A stretch of 36,299 nucleotides of DNA, taken from the UHGV virus genome UHGV-0160579; one strand, 5' to 3'. Positions 3,068-36,249 of the stretch are shown piece after piece; within the stretch, counting starts at the first letter, position 1; each line of letters starts with the position of its first letter. Source of the stretch: a virus. The position numbers and the translations under genes were made by a program. The notes below the pieces were generated by a model, which saw only the letters and a list, made by a program, of their open reading frames with translations, searched no databases and was not told the origin of the DNA.

Positions 3068-3738
3068 TGCTCTCCAAATACAAAACCAATTTCAGCCAGT
3101 GCTTCGTCCATTTTTTCGATGAACTCCGGCACCATCTCGTCAAAACTCGCCATGTACTTTTCATCCCGCTCAACCACGACATAATGCAGGCCTTCACGCT
3201 TCATTCGTGGGTCATAGTTGGCAAAGTACCAGGCATCTTTTCGTGTCACCCACATGCTGTACTGCACCTGGGCCATGTAAGCCGACTTTATGGCCTCGAA
3301 ACCACCGAGCCGGAACTTCATGAAATCCCGGGAGGTAAACGGGCATTTCAGCTCAAGGCCATTGCCGTCACTGCATAAACCATCGGGAGAGCAGGCGGTG
3401 CGCATACTTTCGTCGCGATAGATGATCGGGGATTCAGTAACATTCACGCCGGAAGTGAATTCAAACAGGGTTCTGGCGTCGTTCTCGTACTGTTTTCCCC
3501 ACGCCAGCGCCTTAGCATTAACTTCCGGAGCCACACCGGTGCAAACCTCAGCCAGCAGGGTGTGGAAGTAGGACATTTTCATGTCAGGCCACTTCTTTCC
3601 TGAGCGGGGCTTTGCTATCACGTTGTGAACTTCTGAAGCGGTGATGACGCCGAGCCGTAATTTGTGCCATGCATCATCCCCCTGTTCGACAGCTCTCACG
3701 TCGATCCCGGTACGCTGCAGGATAATGTCCGGTGTCAT
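3058..3738 (-). CDS. exo: Lambda exonuclease (Red-alpha), 5'-3' dsDNA exonuclease
   Basis: 226 aa; near-identical over its length to the lambda Exo sequence as I recall it ([65 protein letters not shown]...). Confidence 0.95.
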
Positions 3739-4520
3739 GCTGCCACCTTCTGCTCAGTGGCTTTCTGTTTCAGGAATCCAAGAGCTTTCACTGCTTCGGC
3801 CTGTGTCAGTTCTGACGATGCGCGAATGTCGCGGCGAAATATCTGGGAACAGAGCGGCAATAAGTCGTCATCCCATGTTTTGTCCAGGGCAATCAGCAGA
3901 GTGTTAATCTCCTGCATGGTTTCATCGTTAACCGGAGTGATGTCGCGTTCCGGCTGACGTTCTGCAGTGTATGCGGTATTTTCGACAATGCGCTCGGCTT
4001 CATCCTTGTCATAGATACCAGCAAATCCGAAGGCCAGACGGGCACACTGAATCATGGCTTTATGCCGTAACATCCGTTTGGGATGCGACTGCCACGGCCC
4101 CGTGATTTCTCTGCCTTCGCGGGTTTTGAATGGTTCGCGGCGGCATTCATCCATCCACTCGGTAACGCAGATCGGATGATTGCGGTCTTTGCGGTAAATC
4201 CGGCATGTACATGATTCATTGTCCTGCTCAAAGTCCATACCATCAAACTGCTGGTTTTCATTGATGATGCGGGACCAGCCATCAACGCCCACCACCGGAA
4301 CAATGCCGTTCTGCTTATCAGGGAAGGCGTAAATTTCTTTCGTCCACGGATTAAGGCCGTACTGGTTGGCGACGATCAACAATGCGATGAACTGCGCATC
4401 GCTGGCATCACCTTTAAATGCCGTCTGGCGAAGAGTGGTGATCAGTTCCTGTGGGTCGACAGAATCCATGCCGACACGTTCAGCCAGCTTCCCTGCCAGC
4501 GTTGCGAGTGCTGTACTCAT
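3735..4520 (-). CDS. bet: Red-beta single-strand annealing protein
   Basis: 261 aa; matches lambda Bet ([66 protein letters not shown]...); overlaps exo start by 4 nt. Confidence 0.95.
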
Positions 4521-4525
4521 CCGTT

Positions 4526-4822
4526 TTATACCTCTGAATCAATATCAGCCTGATGGTGAGCAATGGTTTCAACTATGTACCGGATGTGTTCTGCCATGCG
4601 CTCCTGAAACTCAACATCGTCATCAAACGCACGGGTAATGGCTTTTTTGCTGGCCCCGTGGCGTTGTAAATGATCGATGCATAGCGATTCAAACAGGTGC
4701 TGGGGCAGGCCTTTTTCCATGTCGTCTGCCAGTTCTGCCTCTTTCTCTTCACGGGCGATCTGCTGGTAGTGACGCGCCCAGCTCTGAGCCTCAAGACGAT
4801 CCTGAATGTAATAAGCGTTCAT
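4526..4822 (-). CDS. gam: Gam, RecBCD inhibitor (short GamS form)
   Basis: 98 aa; matches the C-terminal 98 residues of lambda Gam ([21 protein letters not shown]...HHQ.DIDSEV). Confidence 0.9.
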
Positions 4823-5998: not shown

Positions 5999-6068
5999 AC
6001 GGATAGTCTTGGTATTGTTCCATCACATCTTGAGGATGCTCTTCGAACTCTTCAAATTCTTCTTCCAT
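5982..6068 (-). CDS. Small acidic ORF (28 aa, MEEEFEEFEEHPQDVMEQYQDYPYDYDY), lambda orf28-like
   Basis: Hand-translated short ORF between ral and sieB; position and length match lambda orf28. Confidence 0.35.
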   Translation of the reverse strand: MEEEFEEFEEHPQDVMEQYQDYPYDYDY

Positions 6069-6211
6069 ATATCACCTTAAATAGTGGATTGCGGTAGTAA
6101 AGATTGTGCCTGTCTTTTAACCACATCAGGCTCGGTGGTTCTCGTGTACCCCTACAACGAGAAATCGGATAAACTCTATTCACCCCTACAGAGAGCAAAA
6201 GAGAAACGCCG

Positions 6212-6793
6212 ATGAACAACTCATGGTGGCAGGAACTAATGCATTTTTTCCTGCAAGGAATGACACTTAAACAGTTGATTCATATGCTAATCATCCTGAT
6301 CATATTGATTATTGTTATGCCGGTAAGCGTAAAAGAATGGATAAACCTGCATAATCCAGAAATCCTTCCTCATTACTGGATGTATTACATCCTGTTGTTT
6401 TGCGTTAGCTATGTGCTTAACGGCGTTGTTAATTCCGCTTATCACGCTGTGACTGAAAGAATTGAGGTATTCGCTGCTCAGAAGCGCAAATCTAAAGAAG
6501 AAAAATATGTGCAAGATTTGTTTGATTCGTTAACTCTTGGAGAAAGAGCGTATTTGGCATTCGCTGTAGCCGCTAATAACCAGCTACAAACGGAAAAGGG
6601 CGCTCATGAATCAATTTCATTGCTCAAAAAAGGACTCCTCGTTCGAAGGCCTCCTGCTGTTGGATATCCTGATACCGACCGTTTCGTTATCCCTGAAAGC
6701 TATAGACATGAGTGCTACATTAGGTTTGCCGGGAAGGCAGACAGCCTTATGGATGAACTTATCGCTCAGGATAAGCATGGCAAAAACAAGTAA
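6212..6793 (+). CDS. sieB: SieB superinfection exclusion protein (membrane)
   Basis: 193 aa; matches lambda SieB (MNNSWWQELMHFFLQGMTLKQLIHMLIILI...); hydrophobic N-terminal segments. Confidence 0.9.
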   Translation: MNNSWWQELMHFFLQGMTLKQLIHMLIILIILIIVMPVSVKEWINLHNPEILPHYWMYYILLFCVSYVLNGVVNSAYHAVTERIEVFAAQKRKSKEEKYVQDLFDSLTLGERAYLAFAVAANNQLQTEKGAHESISLLKKGLLVRRPPAVGYPDTDRFVIPESYRHECYIRFAGKADSLMDELIAQDKHGKNK

Positions 6794-6809
6794 TTAGCAA
6801 ATGAATTTA

Positions 6810-7082
6810 TCATCTCGCCGTCAGTTGTTTTGATTTCCGGTAGCCTGCCGCGTAAAGAGCTACGTTCGGAAGACAAGTTGAACCTTCATATTTTCTGGTC
6901 AACGTTGTCAGAGTTATCACTTCTGCTCTCATTGCTGGTTTGAGCTTGCATTGCAAGACCACTCGTGAAGGGGTTGGCCTGTGTAGCTTGTCGGAGCTGA
7001 TCGCCTCCTGACTTTGCAGATTTGCGCGACGAGCTCTACGGCGAGAAGCTGCGGTGCCTTTAAATTCTGTTTTTCTGGACAT
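6810..7082 (-). CDS. N: N-type transcription antiterminator with an arginine-rich motif (P22 gp24-like C-terminus)
   Basis: Start placed at the internal ATG at 7082, preceded by RBS GGGAGGA; N-terminus MSRKTEFKGTAASRRRARRANLQ is an arginine-rich RNA-binding motif; C-terminus ...VALYAAGYRKSKQLTAR resembles P22 gp24; nutL lies upstream. Confidence 0.8.
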   Translation of the reverse strand: MSRKTEFKGTAASRRRARRANLQSQEAISSDKLHRPTPSRVVLQCKLKPAMRAEVITLTTLTRKYEGSTCLPNVALYAAGYRKSKQLTAR

Positions 7083-7180
7083 GGATTCCTCCCGAATAAA
7101 CTTTGGCGATGCAATCTCGAAGCTCCTCCTGAGACGGTTGCTTCGGCATTGCATCCCACAGCTTATGTGGTTGGGTGATC

Positions 7181-7226
7181 TGGCTTTTCAGCCACGTAGT
7201 CGAGAGTCGACGTTGTTTAAAGAGCC
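7181..7226 (-). promoter_or_regulatory. nutL (boxA GCTCTTTAA and boxB hairpin TGGCTGAAAAGCCA, read on the minus strand)
   Basis: The boxB stem-loop matches the nutR boxB pattern (TCGCTGAAAAGCGA) at 9894-9907; boxA resembles the CGCTCTT consensus. Confidence 0.6.
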
Positions 7227-7264
7227 TGCCAGTCTGTTCCATTTGGCTTCCAGCGTCCTGCTGA

Positions 7265-7320
7265 CGGTTAAATAGTACGATATGTACTTTACAAGATCAA
7301 TACAATTTGTTGTAAGTTGG
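7265..7320 (-). promoter_or_regulatory. pL promoter with overlapping OL operators (-35 TTGATC, 17 nt spacer, -10 TACTAT on the minus strand; 15-bp palindrome AGTACGATATGTACT at 7275-7289)
   Basis: Sigma70-like hexamers at the correct spacing; the palindrome overlaps the -10 and is repeated in related form at OR (9592-9606). Confidence 0.5.
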
Positions 7321-7486
7321 CGTGGTTTTTTATAACGCTTTGTATTTAATAGTGTTGTTTTTTAGCGTGGATGTATTGCCTCGGCGATGTAAGGAGAGAT
7401 CAGAATTGCGTGGTTTAGTGGGTTGCATCTATTTATTTTTCAATAAATATAATTGGTTATGTGTTTTTAGGTGGGCGAACGTGAGG

Positions 7487-7516
7487 CAAAGAAAACCCGG
7501 CGCTGAGGCCGGGTTG
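7487..7516 (-). terminator. Intrinsic terminator ending the cI accessory operon (AACCCGGC-GCTGA-GCCGGGTT hairpin followed by a T-run on the minus strand)
   Basis: GC-rich 8-bp stem with the minus-strand T-tract (TTTTCTTT) located 3 nt past the stop of the 250-aa gene. Confidence 0.65.
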
Positions 7517-7518
7517 TA

Positions 7519-8271
7519 TTATGCTGCAAGTCTCTTAACCCAAGTCTCTCTTTTGGAGAATGGTAGAACTTGGCTTGATTCATGGAAGAGTAAGGAGAGT
7601 TGTTGCATTTGATCACCAATTGCTTCGCTGTCTATAACAACAAATCTGTTGTTATACTCCTCACTTGAAGCTTTAAGATCAATTAGTTTCCCAAGCAATG
7701 AGTAAGCACTATTCCAGCTTCCTCCGTGTTTCACGCTTGATGTAAAAACGTATTTAGGTATGTCGGTTTTTATTGTTACAGGGACGGTAATTTGATGTCC
7801 ACTCAAGCCATATACGTTTTCACGAAGAGAAAGTGCGTCTCTAAGCTCTGTGTGATATAGATAATCAATAACCATACTTTCAAACTTTTCAGCTTGAACT
7901 GGCTGATACCAGTCTAACGACAAAGTTGATGCGAGTATACCAGCTCTAATTATGTTCGATGTAATCGCACCGACATCCTTTTCTGTTGCCCAAGCAATGA
8001 TTTCTCCTCGAGCATTGAGTTCTGCGCCTTCTTTAAGCAGTAATTGTCGTATCTCATCAAGTCGTTTTTTGGTAAGCGAGATCCCTCTTGCCTCCATATT
8101 CATTAAGGCATCGCATCTGTCACTAACTAAATACCTACCATTGACTTCACGGATAAAGGCACCGACATGCTCTCCATCATCACAGTAAGTGAATGGACTG
8201 ATAATTCTCAAGGTCTTGCCTATTGGATGGCATTCGAAACCTAGTTGTGAGATCACTGTTGAGCACATCAT
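7519..8271 (-). CDS. Uncharacterised protein (250 aa), second gene of the two-gene cassette downstream of cI; candidate phage-exclusion component
   Basis: ATG start overlaps the stop of the upstream gene (ATGA coupling); AT-rich codon usage unlike neighbouring lambda genes; no transmembrane segment or catalytic motif recognised by eye; occupies the rexB-equivalent slot. Confidence 0.75.
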   Translation of the reverse strand: MMCSTVISQLGFECHPIGKTLRIISPFTYCDDGEHVGAFIREVNGRYLVSDRCDALMNMEARGISLTKKRLDEIRQLLLKEGAELNARGEIIAWATEKDVGAITSNIIRAGILASTLSLDWYQPVQAEKFESMVIDYLYHTELRDALSLRENVYGLSGHQITVPVTIKTDIPKYVFTSSVKHGGSWNSAYSLLGKLIDLKASSEEYNNRFVVIDSEAIGDQMQQLSLLFHESSQVLPFSKRETWVKRLAA

Positions 8272-8825
8272 ATTCCAAACCCCATTTGCCCCGACTCATC
8301 TTCAAGCGGTAAAGGTATTCTCCCAGAGTAAGTTATGTTCAGATGTTTACAGAAGTAATTCCAATACCCTACCAGGTCATCTGGGTTTATGTCATCTTCG
8401 ATTGGAAACGCTATTCTATCACTATAGTATCCAGCTTCTTCATAGTATACATGGTAGTGAGCACCGTAAATGATATCTTGGTACTTCGGATGATCGACCT
8501 TGTAACTATTCGTGTGTTTGTCAAAGTGATAGGTATCTACCGCGAAAACCCTCTTGTTATGATAGAAAGCAATAATATTTATTTTAGGGTAAGAAATCGG
8601 GTCATCAGGTTCTGAATCCTGATCTGGTTTCCATTTCAGTTCAAACTTTAGCCCTTGTATAGGTATACAATCCTCATCCAAGGGGATGATATGGGCTTGT
8701 AGCCACATATCAGAGCGACTTGGTTTCTGTTTCCATTTAACGCCAGAAAAGTTAACTATTTTTTTACAATAAAGTACTTTATCAACTTCTACTTGGCTTG
8801 GCTGATAATCATCTATTTTTGCCAA
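8268..8825 (-). CDS. Uncharacterised acidic, Tyr/His-rich protein (185 aa), first gene of the two-gene cassette downstream of cI; candidate phage-exclusion component
   Basis: ORF starts 39 nt after the cI stop on the same strand; AT-rich; contains a His/Tyr-rich stretch (YHFDKHTNSYKVDHPKYQDIIYGAHYHVYYEE); no similarity to RexA recognised. Confidence 0.75.
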   Translation of the reverse strand: MAKIDDYQPSQVEVDKVLYCKKIVNFSGVKWKQKPSRSDMWLQAHIIPLDEDCIPIQGLKFELKWKPDQDSEPDDPISYPKINIIAFYHNKRVFAVDTYHFDKHTNSYKVDHPKYQDIIYGAHYHVYYEEAGYYSDRIAFPIEDDINPDDLVGYWNYFCKHLNITYSGRIPLPLEDESGQMGFGI

Positions 8826-8864
8826 TGTTTACCGCCCTGTAAATTGTAGATAAAAGTGGTTTCA

Positions 8865-9518
8865 TCACCCAAACGTCTCTTCAGGCCATTGGCTGGCGAT
8901 AACTTTCCCCACAACGGAACAACTCTCATTGCATGGGATCATTGGGTATTGTGGGTTTAGTGGCTGTAGAAACACCTGACCGCTATCCCTGATCAGTTTC
9001 TTGAAGGTAAATTCATCACCACCAAGTCTGGCTATGCAGAAATCGCCGGGCTCAACAGCTTGCTCAGGGTCAACCAGAATTAACATCCCGTCAGGAAAGC
9101 TGGGTTTGGAACCTGTTGGTGCGGTCATTGAGTTACCTTCAACCTCAAGCCAGAATGCAGAGTCACTGGCTTTTTTGGTTGTGCTTACCAATCTCTCCGC
9201 ATCGCCTTTGGTAAAGGTTCTGAGTTCTGGAGAGAACATCCCAGCCTGAACATGAGAAAAAACAGGGTACTCATATTGTTTTTTAACTGGGGCCGATGAG
9301 TATTCGCCAACAGGTGAAAATGTCCCGTCGTGGTTGAATGATATGTTATCAATACCAAGGTATTTAAACACCACACCAATATCACTAAGAGATGGATGAC
9401 GAGATCCGCGCAACCAGTGTCCAATCCCACCCTGCGTCATACCTAGCTCTTCGGCTAACTTCTCTTGAGTTATGCCGAGCTCTTTCATTCTGGATCTAGC
9501 CAGTTCATACCATTTCAT
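8865..9518 (-). CDS. cI: CI-type prophage repressor (N-terminal HTH, C-terminal S24 LexA-like autopeptidase domain)
   Basis: HTH region [23 protein letters not shown]; C-terminal ...[32 protein letters not shown]...KKL... resembles the P22 C2 and lambda CI cleavage domains (Ser/Lys dyad); the track start at 9566 is TTG, and ATG candidates are 9560, 9524 and 9518 (9518 has the best RBS spacing). Confidence 0.85.
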
Positions 9519-9524
9519 TTTCAT

Positions 9525-9635
9525 GTCCTTATTATTACGCTCTGTACTGGAACCATCCATGCACAATGTGTATTTTTACTTGTATTCGCAAAGTACATAT
9601 TGTATTTTTTTATTCGTGTTTACTATGGAGGGCAT
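9525..9635. promoter_or_regulatory. Divergent OR/pR/pRM control region (pR -35 TTGTAT 9580-9585, -10 TATTTT 9603-9608; candidate operator AGTACATATTGTATT at 9592-9606)
   Basis: Intergenic region between divergent cI and cro; promoter hexamers at 17-nt spacing; operator-like element related to the OL palindrome. Confidence 0.45.
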
Positions 9636-9851
9636 ATGAGCAACCTACGAAAATATCGAGAGTCACTGAATATCTCTCAAACAACACTTGCTAAGGCAGT
9701 TGGATGCACACAGGGAGCTATCGGACATTGGGAATCTGGTCGTCGCTTCCCAGACCTTAAAACATGCCGTGCTCTTGTTGCGTGCCTAAACAAGTTAGGC
9801 GCAAAAGTCAGTCTTGATGACGTGTTCCCGCCGGAACACAAAGCCGCTTAA
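9636..9851 (+). CDS. cro: Cro-like HTH repressor (71 aa)
   Basis: ATG at 9636 preceded by GGAG; HTH ISQTTLAKAVGCTQGAIGHWESG; divergent from cI; the track ORF starting at 9465 is an unsupported upstream extension. Confidence 0.85.
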   Translation: MSNLRKYRESLNISQTTLAKAVGCTQGAIGHWESGRRFPDLKTCRALVACLNKLGAKVSLDDVFPPEHKAA

Positions 9852-9861
9852 TAAGCGGATC

Positions 9862-9907
9862 CGCTCTTTGTAACAACGGACATTCGTCCTACGTCGCTGA
9901 AAAGCGA
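9862..9907 (+). promoter_or_regulatory. nutR (boxA CGCTCTTTGTAA 9862-9873; boxB hairpin TCGCTGAAAAGCGA 9894-9907)
   Basis: boxA consensus and a GAAAA-loop boxB hairpin downstream of cro, mirroring the nutL elements. Confidence 0.6.
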
Positions 9908-9992
9908 GTTCCAAGATATCTGACCAACTAAGGCCATATGCGTTTCCACGCATACCTTTCAACTAACTATTCACTATTGGAAATCTTAAGAA

Positions 9993-10289
9993 ATGGAAAG
10001 AACAAGTTACAGCAAACTATCACAGCGTGACGTTGATCGCGCAGAAACAGATTTACTTATCAATCTGTCAGCTATTACCCAGCGCGGTCTGGCAAAGATG
10101 ATTGGCTGTCATGAATCGAAGATAAGCAGAACGGACTGGAGATTTATTGCTTCGGTCTTGTGTGCTTTCGGAATGGCATCAGACATCAGTCCGATTAGCA
10201 GGGCTTTTAAGTATGCGCTTGATGGACTCACCAATAAAAAACGCCCGGCGGCAACCGAGCGTTCTGAACAAATCCAGATGGAATTCTGA
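9993..10289 (+). CDS. cII: CII transcriptional activator
   Basis: 98 aa; C-terminal half ...LTNKKRPAATERSEQIQMEF matches lambda CII; N-terminal half divergent with HTH ...GLAKMIGCHESKISR. Confidence 0.85.
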   Translation: MERTSYSKLSQRDVDRAETDLLINLSAITQRGLAKMIGCHESKISRTDWRFIASVLCAFGMASDISPISRAFKYALDGLTNKKRPAATERSEQIQMEF

Positions 10290-10321
10290 GGTCATTACTG
10301 GATCAATCCACAGGAGTCATT

Positions 10322-11221
10322 ATGACAAATACAGCAAAAATACTCAACTTCTGCAGAGGTAACTTTGCCAAACAGGAGCGTAATGTGGCAGATCTCGATG
10401 ATGGTTACGCCAGACTATCAAATATGCTGCTTGAGGCTTATTCAGGCGCAGATCTGACCAAGCGACAGTTTAAAGTGCTGCTTGCCATTCTGCGTAAAAC
10501 CTATGGATGGAATAAACCAATGGACAGAATCACCGATTCTCAACTTAGCGAGATTACAAAGTTACCCGTCAAACGGTGCAATGAAGCCAAGTTAGAACTC
10601 GTCAGAATGAATATTATCAAGCAGCAAGGCGGCATGTTTGGACCAAATAAAAACATCTCAGAATGGTGTATCCCTCAAAACGAGGGAAAATCCCCTAAAA
10701 CGAGGGATAAAACATCCCTCAAATTGGGGGATTGCTATCCCTCAAAACAGGGGGACACAAAAGACACTATTACAAAAGAAAAAAGAAAAGATTATTCGTC
10801 AGAGAATTCTGGCGAATCCTCTGACCAGCCAGAAAACGACCTTTCTGTGGTGAAACCGGATGCTGCAATTCAGAGCGGCAGCAAGTGGGGGACAGCAGAA
10901 GACCTGACCGCCGCAGAATGGATGTTTGACATGGTGAAGACCATCGCGCCATCAGCCAGAAAACCGAATTTTGCAGGGTGGGCTAACGATATCCGCCTGA
11001 TGCGTGAACGTGACGGACGTAACCATCGCGACATGTGTGTACTGTTCCGCTGGGCATGCCAGGACAACTTCTGGTCCGGTAACGTGCTGAGCCCGGCCAA
11101 ACTCCGCGACAAGTGGACCCAGCTCGAAATCAACCGTAACAAGCAACAGGCAGGTGTGACAGCCTGCAAACCAAAACTCGACCTGACAAACACTGACTGG
11201 ATTTACGGGGTGGATTTATGA
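10322..11221 (+). CDS. O: Replication initiator O
   Basis: 299 aa; matches lambda O protein (MTNTAKILNF.RGNFA.QERNVADLDDGYARLSNMLLEAYSGADLTKRQFKVLLAILRKTYGWNKPMDRITDSQLSEITKLPVKRCNEAKLELVRMNIIKQQGGMFGPNKNISEWCIPQNEGKSPKTRDKTSLKL...); contains the ori iterons. Confidence 0.95.
   Translation: MTNTAKILNFCRGNFAKQERNVADLDDGYARLSNMLLEAYSGADLTKRQFKVLLAILRKTYGWNKPMDRITDSQLSEITKLPVKRCNEAKLELVRMNIIKQQGGMFGPNKNISEWCIPQNEGKSPKTRDKTSLKLGDCYPSKQGDTKDTITKEKRKDYSSENSGESSDQPENDLSVVKPDAAIQSGSKWGTAEDLTAAEWMFDMVKTIAPSARKPNFAGWANDIRLMRERDGRNHRDMCVLFRWACQDNFWSGNVLSPAKLRDKWTQLEINRNKQQAGVTACKPKLDLTNTDWIYGVDL
10671..10800 (+). repeat. ori-lambda: four ~18-bp iterons (TCCCTCAAAACGAGGGA-type inverted repeats at 10671-10687, 10691-10707, 10714-10731, 10738-10756) followed by an AT-rich unwinding region
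   Basis: Repeats read directly from sequence inside O; followed by an A-rich tract 10761-10800. Confidence 0.9.
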
Positions 11222-15124: not shown

Positions 15125-16207
15125 TTAGAACTGATAAACCAGACCTACAGCGACGATGTCGTCGGTATCAATACCAGCTGTTTTGGTAAACTTACTATCG
15201 TCAATTAAGTTGATTTTGTAATCAACAAAAGTGGACATGTTTTTATTAAAGTAGTAAGTAGCACCGACATCGACATACTTGACTAAGTCTCGGTCACCAT
15301 GAACACCAAGGTCTTTACCTTTTGACTGAAGGTAAGCAACAGATGGACGCAGACCGAAGTCAAACTGATATTGTGCTACTGCTTCAAAGTTTTGTGCTTT
15401 GTTTGCAATATGGTTATTACCAAAAACGGTCATATTCTGAGTTTCAGAATATGTGGTAGCCAGATAGATATTGTTCGCATCATATTTCAGGCCTGCAGCC
15501 CATACTTCCGCATTTTTGCCGGAGGCATTGAATTTGCTCTTACCATAGGCGACCTGACCGTCAGTGCGATCTGATTTAGCATAGGTTGCACCCACGCCGA
15601 ATCCTTCATACTCATAAGTAGTGGAGAAACCGAAACCATCACCATTGGCTTCAGTTACGTCAGTGCGGTCATTTTTACCCTGATACTGAGCAGCAAAGTT
15701 CAGGCCATCGACCAGACCAAAGAAGTCGTTGTTACGATAAGTTGCAACACCAGTAGTGCGACCAGTCATGAACACATCTGTTTGGGTCCAGGTATCACCA
15801 CCGAATTCTGGCAGAACGTCAGTCCACGCACCGATGTCGTATGCTACACCGTAGTTACGGCCGTAATCGATTGAGCCGTAATCACCAAATTTCAGGCCTG
15901 CAAATGCAAGACGGGTTTTGTCTTTGGAAGAACCTTGAGATTCAGCACGGTTGCCTTTGAATTCATATTCCCACTGACCGAAACCAGTCAGTTGATCGTT
16001 GATTTGGGTTTCACCTTTGAAGCCAAGACGGGCATAAGTAGTATCACCATCATCTGCATCATTAGAGGAGAAGTAGTGCTTGGCATTAACTTTCCCGTAT
16101 AGATCCAGCTTGTTACTGTCTTTATTATAAATTTCAGCTGCCTGAGCAGACATCGCCATCAGTACTGATGCAGCTACAGCAGAAATTGCCACTGTTAATT
16201 TTTTCAT
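15125..16207 (-). CDS. nmpC: Outer-membrane general porin (OmpC/OmpF family; NmpC/Lc-type phage porin)
   Basis: ATG at 16207 gives a signal peptide [23 protein letters not shown], porin-type beta-barrel sequence and C-terminal ...VAVGLVYQF; the track start at 16267 is an unsupported extension; located between Q and the holin as in DLP12 and PA-2. Confidence 0.9.
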
Positions 16208-16633
16208 TGTACGCCCTTTTTTTGAACTATTATTAAAAAATGATGTCACTGCGCGATAAATATTCATCTAATCAATGTGATTATTTCAAGATGTAAGTTT
16301 TAGTTTCTCATTTAATTTGTGAAGTAGATCTCTATTTTTATCTGAACCTTTTCTATCTAATCCTATTCATGGCTCTTGTCTGAACAAAAATAAATCTATT
16401 AGCTAATTTATATTAATGGCACTTATTTATAAGTGCTCTATAATTCTTTAGCTTAATTTAAACAAACTAAAAATAACATCGGAAATTATTAACTGGTTAT
16501 TTGTTGAAGTTTTCTTATGCATTTGTGGTGGTGTTTTGAACACTCGGTGGCATTCTCACAAATATCATTTAGTAGTTTACGTACGTAAAAAATTGGTTAT
16601 GCTGTTAAGAGTGGTTACTTCGTCACACAGCTT

Positions 16634-35127: not shown

Positions 35128-36249
35128 ATGGGTAAAGGAAGCAGTAAGGGGCATACCCCGCGCGAAGCGAGGGACAACCTGAAGTCCACGCAGCTGCTGA
35201 GTGTGATCGATGCCATCAGCGAAGGGCCGGTTGAAGGTCCGGTGGACGGATTAAAAAGCGTGCTGCTGAACAGTACGCCGGTGCTGGACAGTGAGGGGAA
35301 TACCAATATATCCGGTGTCACGGTGGTGTTCCGGGCAGGTGAGCAGGAGCAGACACCGCCGGAGGGATTTGAATCCTCCGGCTCCGAGACGGTGCTGGGT
35401 ACGGAAGTGAAATATGACACGCCGATCACCCGGACCATCACGTCGGCAAACATTGACCGTCTGCGCTTTACCTTCGGTGTGCAGGCACTGGTGGAAACCA
35501 CCTCAAAGGGGGACCGGAATCCGTCGGAAGTCCGCCTGCTGGTTCAGATACAGCGTAACGGTGGCTGGGTGACGGAAAAAGACATCACCATTAAGGGCAA
35601 AACCACCTCGCAGTATCTGGCCTCGGTGGTGGTGGATAACCTGCCTCCGCGCCCGTTCAATATCCGGATGCGCAGGATGACACCGGACAGCACCACAGAC
35701 CAGCTGCAGAACAAAACGCTCTGGTCGTCATACACCGAAATCATCGATGTGAAACAGTGCTACCCGAACACGGCACTGGTCGGCGTGCAGGTGGACTCGG
35801 AACAGTTCGGCAGCCAGCAGGTGAGCCGTAATTATCATCTTCGCGGGCGCATTCTGCAGGTGCCGTCGAACTATAACCCGCAGACGCGGCAATACATCGG
35901 TATCTGGGACGGGACGTTTAAACCGGCATACAGCAACAACATGGCCTGGTGTCTGTGGGATATGCTGACCCACCCGCGCTACGGCATGGGTAAACGTCTT
36001 GGTGCGGCAGATGTGGATAAATGGGCGCTGTATGTCATCGGCCAGAATTGCGACCAGTCGGTGCCGGACGGTTTTGGCGGCACGGAGCCGCGCATCACCT
36101 GTAATGCGTACCTGACCACACAGCGCAAGGCGTGGGATGTGCTCAGTGATTTTTGCTCACTATTAATATTAATTGGGATGCAGAAGCAGTCCAGACAGTT
36201 GCGGCCGGTGATCCTGTGCGAACTGGGGATTCGTCTCCAACCGGCTTAA
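35128..36249 (+). pseudogene. J: Tail tip / host-specificity protein J, N-terminal ~344 codons only; the frame ends at a stop at 36249 after the sequence departs from lambda J at about 36160
   Basis: Residues 1 to ~344 match lambda J (MGKGSSKGHTPREA.DNLKSTQLLSVIDAISEGP.EGPVDGLKSV...KAWDVLSDFCS); thereafter the DNA does not match lambda J as recalled and the frame stops; full-length J is about 1130 aa. Confidence 0.6.

Follow-up and report, generated by a model that had tools for sequence, protein, structure and literature searches.

Exclusion of other phages is a frequent function of genes that immediately follow a prophage repressor, for example lambda rexAB, bstA, and the stk gene of 933W. 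BstA (Salmonella BTP1) and Stk (933W) are single-gene exclusion systems that adjoin the repressor, are expressed in the lysogen, and act against heterologous phages. Here, we describe a two-gene cassette (genes A and B; Table 1) that occupies the rexAB slot downstream of cI in the viral genome UHGV-0160579; 'the window' denotes the whole stretch of 36,299 nucleotides of this genome that was analysed computationally. Its catalogued distant relatives belong to PDC-M24, a class of the phage defence candidates (PDC), a set of 145 untested candidates embedded in BREX, DISARM, and type I restriction-modification loci (Payne et al., bioRxiv 10.1101/2024.01.29.577857); a later paper left PDC systems out as unvalidated.

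On balance, we favour the reading that the cassette is a lysogen-expressed accessory operon (moron) that protects the lysogen against other phages. Defence is the best-supported role given the operon layout, the fixed position after the repressor, the moron signature, the relation to PDC-M24, the defence candidates found as neighbours in the slot, and a nuclease-like domain. This assessment is for the defence role as such, and any single step of the mechanism outlined below is considerably less probable. The original prediction, made from the DNA letters alone, had proposed phage exclusion for the pair; the position in 87 of 88 loci, the cargo of the slot, and the PDC-M24 match lend indirect support to a defence role, and exclusion itself is still a prediction.

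Position and composition of the cassette

Window positions 7400-7515 are approximately 90% identical to lambda 35714-35826, the sequence directly after rexB, which makes this slot a homologue of the one that holds rex in lambda. The bounds of the cassette are exact, with the cI stop codon on one side and a lambda-type terminator on the other, and its earlier placement in the rexAB slot is borne out by these bounds and by the flanking identity. Alignment with phage VT2-Sakai, which carries Shiga toxin (Stx) genes, gave homology blocks at window 6810-7516 (93.2%) and 8867-10329 (96.6%), and the 1350 bp between these blocks hold the unrelated cargo H0093/H0092 in VT2-Sakai. In the VT2-Sakai record, the corresponding hairpin carries the annotation 'terminator for pRM transcript'. 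The guanine-plus-cytosine (GC) content is 38.2% for A, 40.6% for B, and 39.6% for the cassette, vs. 46.3% for cI and 50.6% for the window. The cassette looks like a horizontally exchanged moron, and the view that it is an AT-rich acquisition agrees with its composition, with the mixing of repressor types described below, and with the clean replacement relative to VT2-Sakai.

Stx phages that share this cI carry other uncharacterised cargo at this point (H0093/H0092 of VT2-Sakai, at 2180-2997 in locus L011), and searches of H0093 (173 aa) against Pfam and PADLOC gave no match. Elsewhere, other cargo in the equivalent slot also matches PADLOC defence candidates. These loci document the repressor-proximal slot as a point of cargo exchange across Enterobacterales and Pseudomonas phages.

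The layout previously described (cI, a 39-nt gap, A of 185 aa, B of 250 aa, and an ATGA overlap) was reproduced in full, and the RefSeq coordinates of A and B are identical to our open reading frame (ORF) calls. The protein encoded upstream of A matches HTH_3 (E-value 2e-10) and Peptidase_S24 (E-value 1e-28) in Pfam and is therefore cI; the gene is 98.5% identical in nucleotide sequence to the cI genes of VT2-Sakai, Stx2 II, Nil2, and 2851, and presumably heads a pRM/pRE operon. A scan of the interval between cI and A found no terminator-like site, and the terminator that had been noted before pL begins three bases past the B stop codon, with eight stem pairs (six of them G-C) and a T-rich tail. 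Promoter-like matches in the region were not above chance (5 found vs. 6.2 expected from shuffled sequence); an internal promoter of B comparable to lambda pLIT was rejected, as consensus matches were no commoner than in shuffled sequence. The operon layout predicts co-transcription of A and B with cI, as had been proposed, and the ATGA overlap implies translational coupling between them. No Rfam RNA family was found within 6000-10500. ORFs of 78-94 aa on the plus strand of the cassette were set aside as spurious because they lie antisense inside genes under purifying selection.

Linkage to prophage repressors

The pair was recovered at 88 loci (80 from IMG/VR, 7 from genomes, and 1 from a Pseudomonas phage), all scored with profile hidden Markov models built in this analysis. 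With one genome scanned per species, it was found in Izhakiella, Yersinia, Providencia (two species), Xenorhabdus, Pantoea, and Thorsellia; a D3-like Pseudomonas phage relative, whose B is 29.5% identical, was added by tblastn of phage records, and the scan of IMG/VR contributed the 80 further loci. In Pseudomonas phage VB_PaD_phPA-G (PP083311.1), the A homologue at 3486-4004 is unannotated in GenBank and shares an ATGA overlap with the annotated B.

A overlaps B at every one of the 88 loci, and in 87 of them A is preceded, 29-769 nt away and in the same orientation, by a repressor of the HTH-S24 type; co-occurrence of the pair and its recurrence behind repressors had both been put forward as checks on the original prediction, and both were found. 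The overlap is the 4-nt ATGA in seven of the eight junctions read directly, as well as in the window, and is 13 nt long in the Pantoea-type lineage. Clustered at 70% identity, the 88 loci comprise 35 repressor types and only 9 types of A and 6 of B, and a single B cluster of at least 95% identity occurs with up to five repressor types. The pair is therefore tied to the post-repressor position and not to one immunity specificity. As judged from these sequences, A and B are always inherited together, and the pair moves among prophages of differing repressors.

Such linkage also bears on a different role, in which the pair would modulate the life cycle of its own prophage, in the manner of a Rex-like effect on the lysogenic-to-lytic transition, or would process DNA when the prophage is induced or in the SOS response. 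The strict association with RecA-cleavable HTH-S24 repressors (87/88 loci) and the fold of B, which is nuclease-like and of a DNA-enzyme type, would suit it, as would the second role of lambda RexA/RexB in modulating the lysogenic-lytic switch that is attributed to Thomason et al. (2021) in the passage of PMC12315714 that cites them. It is very unlikely in view of three observations: the cassette accompanies 35 repressor types and so cannot rely on any one repressor or operator in particular, it is missing from phages that share this cI (VT2-Sakai and approximately 55 other records), and it is preserved with 100% identity in the IS-truncated prophage of Escherichia coli Nissle 1917, which is not inducible.

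Two lineages have an extra gene between the repressor and A, one of which matches PDC-S43/DUF3024 in PADLOC (E-value 1.4e-38). The extra cargo in this interval (5044-5385 in L003, 2680-3330 in L012, the Pseudomonas phage locus, and 5010-5354 in L009) consists of a DUF3024 protein (PDC-S43), a protein of 216 aa with a weak match to PDC-S48, and a hydrophobic ORF of 114 aa.

The family was limited to prophage immunity regions in every locus examined, and a scan of plasmids found no relative of the pair. A 518-bp contig labelled 'Actinomadura rugatobispora' (L010, NZ_JBHSON010000334.1) spans the A-B junction; its B shares 82% identity with that of E. coli, and the contig is most likely contaminating enterobacterial DNA.

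For pairs of loci with unsaturated synonymous sites, the ratio of nonsynonymous to synonymous substitution rates (dN/dS) was 0.12-0.15 for A and 0.06-0.08 for B. By this measure, A and B are real genes under purifying selection, and the alternative of a non-functional remnant was therefore discarded.

Protein B

The N-terminal half of B passes the Pfam threshold for DUF1828 (33.5 bits vs. a cut-off of 22; residues 26-110), and PF08861 is precomputed for nearly all B homologues. This domain (approximately aa 1-120) is predicted to adopt a type III secretion chaperone/YbjN-like fold. The C-terminal domain (approximately aa 125-250) is predicted to have the fold of PD-(D/E)xK restriction endonucleases, with the alpha-beta-beta-beta-alpha-beta core present. 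The earlier view that B has no recognizable features is therefore abandoned, and the statement that the pair has no nuclease motifs holds for the canonical catalytic motif and fails for the fold of the C-terminal half. At the sequence level, B matched no solved nuclease, and when A, B, and the family profiles were compared by sequence with every solved structure, the matches were confined to chance ones and spurious ones to repeat proteins.

B is better conserved than A, and its homologues extend to Aeromonas and Thorsellia (47% identity). Once the Pseudomonas homologue is added, the C-terminal half retains G155, S157, G158, H159, P164, T177, W186, G194, D198, and R209 as invariant residues. 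Any catalysis by B would be non-canonical, perhaps with a migrated active site. Most homologues end in -LAA (window 7519-7527), and the Pseudomonas phage homologue ends in -ALAA (4745-4753). ClpX recognizes the similar end of the ssrA tag, and the -LAA end may by analogy hint at proteolytic instability of B.

Protein A

A is acidic and rich in tyrosine and histidine, as first described (isoelectric point of 5.27, 16 Tyr, 8 His). Neither A nor B has a membrane-like segment (maximum 19-residue hydropathy of 0.45 and 1.19, respectively), in line with the absence of transmembrane segments that had been stated for both. A word-indexed search with A returned only about 25 clusters, Enterobacterales throughout, and an exhaustive profile search found 20 A-family proteins among 1.84 billion representatives; the A family is therefore very small. 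In an alignment that reaches down to 21% identity, K22, W31, R92, D97, N106, G121, H123, H125, F158, and P173 are invariant and H104, W155, and Q180 nearly so.

The AlphaFold2 model of A is confident (predicted local distance difference test score of 85.9, predicted template modelling score of 0.83) and mostly beta, and its fold matched no solved structure; a Foldseek search against viral structure predictions retrieved one uncharacterised Siphoviridae protein (E-value 3.9e-5), which is uninformative. D97, H104/N106, and H123/H125 lie on three separate strands of the model (91-97, 103-105, and 123-126), and from their alternating pattern we infer that they may face one side and form a metal-binding or active site.

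A evolves about twice as fast as B by dN/dS. Sensors in defence systems often evolve fast, and the rate of A fits a sensor role. A starts with TTG in E. coli, six other lineages use GTG, and Thorsellia and the Pseudomonas phage alone have ATG, so that seven of the nine sequences read, including the window, have a weak start; the weak initiation codon looks conserved.

This start is one of the points that would suit a toxin-antitoxin-like addiction module, in which A would be a low-expressed toxin and B its labile neutralizer, and in which the pair would stabilize the prophage or the cassette with defence absent or incidental. The stop/start overlap of the genes in all loci, the -LAA/-ALAA tail of B (linked to ClpX by established knowledge), and the protein-holding chaperone fold at the N-terminus of B could be read in the same way. 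We consider such a module unlikely, given that searches of Pfam, NCBIfam, and PADLOC gave no toxin or antitoxin family for either protein, that a DNA-binding autoregulatory domain was not detected, and that B, at 250 aa, is large and the slower-evolving partner, whereas antitoxins usually evolve fast. As many toxin-antitoxin systems double as defence, this explanation overlaps with a protective role.

Status in databases and the literature

PDC-M24 profiles were the only ones in PADLOC matched by A and B. B matches PDC-M24B (PDLC04540) with an E-value of 4.7e-10 along nearly the whole profile (residues 2-249 on positions 4-254 of 256; judged without the PADLOC per-model cut-offs), and the Pseudomonas homologue of B matches it with an E-value of 3.5e-5. 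Weak matches to PDC-M24A, and to nothing else, were found in five of ten distant members of the A family, and the Pseudomonas A had no match in PADLOC. A and five relatives match PDC-M24A/DUF6978 over the conserved H..N...HxH core. Families 2017 and 1960 of PHROGs hold both proteins with no function assigned, and NCBIfam gave no match for either. A literature search on DUF1828, DUF6978, PDC-M24, the RefSeq accessions, and the phages found no study of these genes.

The cassette had been called novel. This stands insofar as no named validated system corresponds to it, and it has to be qualified by the PDC-M24 relatives, PHROGs families 2017 and 1960, DUF1828, the published phages, and the 239 E. 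coli genomes in which the sequences already reside.

Occurrence in Escherichia coli and the Nissle 1917 prophage

Of 5426 complete E. coli genomes, 239 (approximately 4%) carry the cassette, including Nissle 1917, ATCC 25922, and the type strain ATCC 11775. It is 100% identical in these three strains, in many extraintestinal pathogenic strains, and in phages ev017, ev207, PhiR57_1, and PhiR63_2, and 98.9% identical in an Stx1a phage; VT2-Sakai and approximately 55 other records have the same cI and no cassette.

The cassette is common among extraintestinal and commensal E. coli, and this would be compatible with a phage-unrelated role in lysogenic conversion, for instance in stress tolerance or host regulation, as reported for some YbjN-family proteins. 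We give little credence to such a function: the sole specific database signal is that of defence candidates, the slot elsewhere holds defence candidates, and at all loci examined the family is restricted to prophage immunity regions and absent from plasmids.

In Nissle 1917 (L002 5112-6717), the cI-A-B segment is 100% identical to the window. The left side of this prophage is cut off by an insertion sequence (IS) of the IS3 family, ISEc52, which adjoins sieB; its integrase is partial, and the prophage is defective and no longer inducible. Part of the resistance of Nissle to lambda and Stx phages has been ascribed to a 'phage repressor' gene of this prophage, and the same study concluded that some factor besides the cloned gene must block these phages in Nissle (Bury et al. 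2018; PMC5987069). The cloning and quantitative polymerase chain reaction primers for that gene ('phage repressor (pr, EcN_1294)'; Bury et al. 2018) map to window 9947-10315. What was reported to make K-12 resistant to lambda and Stx phages is therefore the cII homologue of this prophage type and not cI, and that study was rejected as a prior test of the cassette since its primers fall on cII (Table 1).

The cassette is a direct candidate for the additional factor that blocks lambda and Stx phages in Nissle. As it is identical in Nissle 1917 (a probiotic and an engineering chassis), ATCC 25922, ATCC 11775, and pathogens, it could shape the outcomes of phage therapy and the spread of Stx phages. 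If active, it would provide the first functional evidence for the PDC-M24 class and add a new protein pair to the defence repertoire. Of this pair, A has a fold that differs from every solved structure, and B has a nuclease fold without a nuclease motif.

Possible mechanism and points against a defence role

A and B would be made from pRM in the prophage state and would form a complex, in which the chaperone-like N-terminal domain of B, a partner-holding fold, would bind A or a phage protein. Toxic or antiviral activity could come from the nuclease-like domain of B, through a non-canonical site at the SGH loop, D198, and R209; alternatively or additionally, it could come from the D97/H104/N106/H123/H125 cluster on adjacent beta strands of A. 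Infection would shift the A:B balance or conformation and release this activity, with either abortive infection or a direct attack on the nucleic acid of the phage as the outcome. A may act as a sensor, in keeping with its faster evolution, or else as a toxin with B as its labile neutralizer, which the weak start codon of A and the -LAA tail of B would fit.

Several points weigh against protection of the lysogen as the role of the cassette. The match of A to PDC-M24A is partial and weak (E-value 4.8e-4, 18 bits, residues 104-163 only). Its score against DUF6978 in Pfam (22.0 bits over approximately 55 residues) is below the gathering cut-off of 29.6, its relatives score 16.8-22.9 bits, and A is probably a remote relative of DUF6978 and not a member. 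Scans of viral contigs, metagenomes, and plasmids gave no genomic placement for the distant A relatives. The canonical D...(D/E)xK motif is absent from B: neither an acidic residue nor a lysine is conserved on strands 2 and 3, and the Pseudomonas homologue lacks K173, so that B is no more than a putative nuclease. Adjacency to cI would speak for expression in the lysogen and not for what the proteins do, and the second role of lambda Rex noted above illustrates the point. Our literature search found no experiment on A, B, or PDC-M24.

A more specific version of the protective role combines several of these elements and is, as a whole, improbable. The cassette would embody a new abortive-infection mechanism, with A as a metal-binding effector of unseen fold restrained by the chaperone-like, degenerate-nuclease B, which ClpXP would degrade via -LAA. 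Host shut-off by the phage, or a phage protein that titrates B, would release A, and the intact cassette of Nissle 1917 would be among the lambda/Stx resistance factors of the strain.

Features of the locus and neighbouring genes

The whole window is a lambdoid prophage or phage. From the left end, a long minus-strand ORF is followed by exo, bet, gam, kil, and cIII, and then by sieB, N, the immunity region, O and P, the nin region, Q, and the lysis, head, and tail genes.

Table 1. Coordinates of the cassette and of adjoining features in the window.
Feature	Position	Strand	Remarks
cI repressor, HTH_3 + Peptidase_S24	8865..9566	-	233 aa; RefSeq start gives 8865-9560
cI-A spacer	8826..8864	-	39 nt; GGGCGG, weak Shine-Dalgarno-like, 7 nt ahead of TTG
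Gene A	8268..8825	-	185 aa; TTG start; acidic, Tyr/His-rich
A stop/B start overlap	8268..8271	-	ATGA; sequence read
Gene B	7519..8271	-	250 aa; ATG start; ends in -LAA
Intrinsic terminator	7485..7516	-	Stem 7515..7494 (8 pairs) and T-rich tail; homologous to lambda after rexB
Exchanged module	7517..8866		1350 bp; homology to VT2-Sakai absent, flanks resume sharply
cII	9993-10289	+	Covered by the primers of Bury et al. 2018

A superinfection-exclusion gene, sieB, lies at 6212-6793 on the plus strand, adjoining N on the opposite strand (Pfam E-value 2.5e-22); with 41% GC it is AT-rich, and it is a second exclusion-type moron in the early-left region. Between the Q region and the lysis genes, a 380-aa ORF lies on the opposite strand (15125-16267, minus), and the Nissle prophage has a counterpart annotated as porin OmpC. 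Porins of the OmpC type are a known kind of lambdoid moron.

Comparison with known systems

The cassette resembles PDC-M24 in consisting of two adjacent genes in the same order, with adjacency on one strand at all 88 cassette loci, and in the full-length match of B to PDC-M24B. It differs in that the match of A is sub-threshold and covers about a third of the protein, in that the A family is tiny (20 among 1.84 billion proteins), and in its location in the prophage immunity region, vs. restriction or BREX loci for PDC-M24.

With lambda rexA-rexB it has in common the slot, between the cI stop and a homologous terminator upstream of pL, and the arrangement of two genes on the cI strand, presumably made from pRM in the lysogen. 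The proteins themselves are without sequence similarity to RexA or RexB (no Rex match in Pfam, PADLOC, or NCBIfam), as the original prediction had held. RexB is a multi-pass membrane protein, whereas A and B are without a hydrophobic segment. RexA has been reported to be structurally like the DNA-binding protein RdgC (PMC12315714), whereas A matches no solved structure and the folds of B differ from RexA/RdgC. BstA and Stk are likewise variable cargo directly downstream of a repressor, but they are single genes, and their proteins are unrelated to A and B. Compared with PD-(D/E)xK effector nucleases of defence systems (the type II restriction enzymes NgoMIV, PspGI, and Cfr10I, and the nuclease domain of Can2/Card1), B does not conserve the catalytic carboxylates and lysine and instead has the SGH loop, T177, D198, and R209 as invariants.

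The cassette does not correspond to a named validated system, nor is it new in kind: a post-repressor cargo operon that excludes phages is a well-known kind of element, and a distant relative is already catalogued. What is undescribed is this family, its exclusive association with the repressor-proximal position, the unmatched fold of A, and the degenerate nuclease domain of B.

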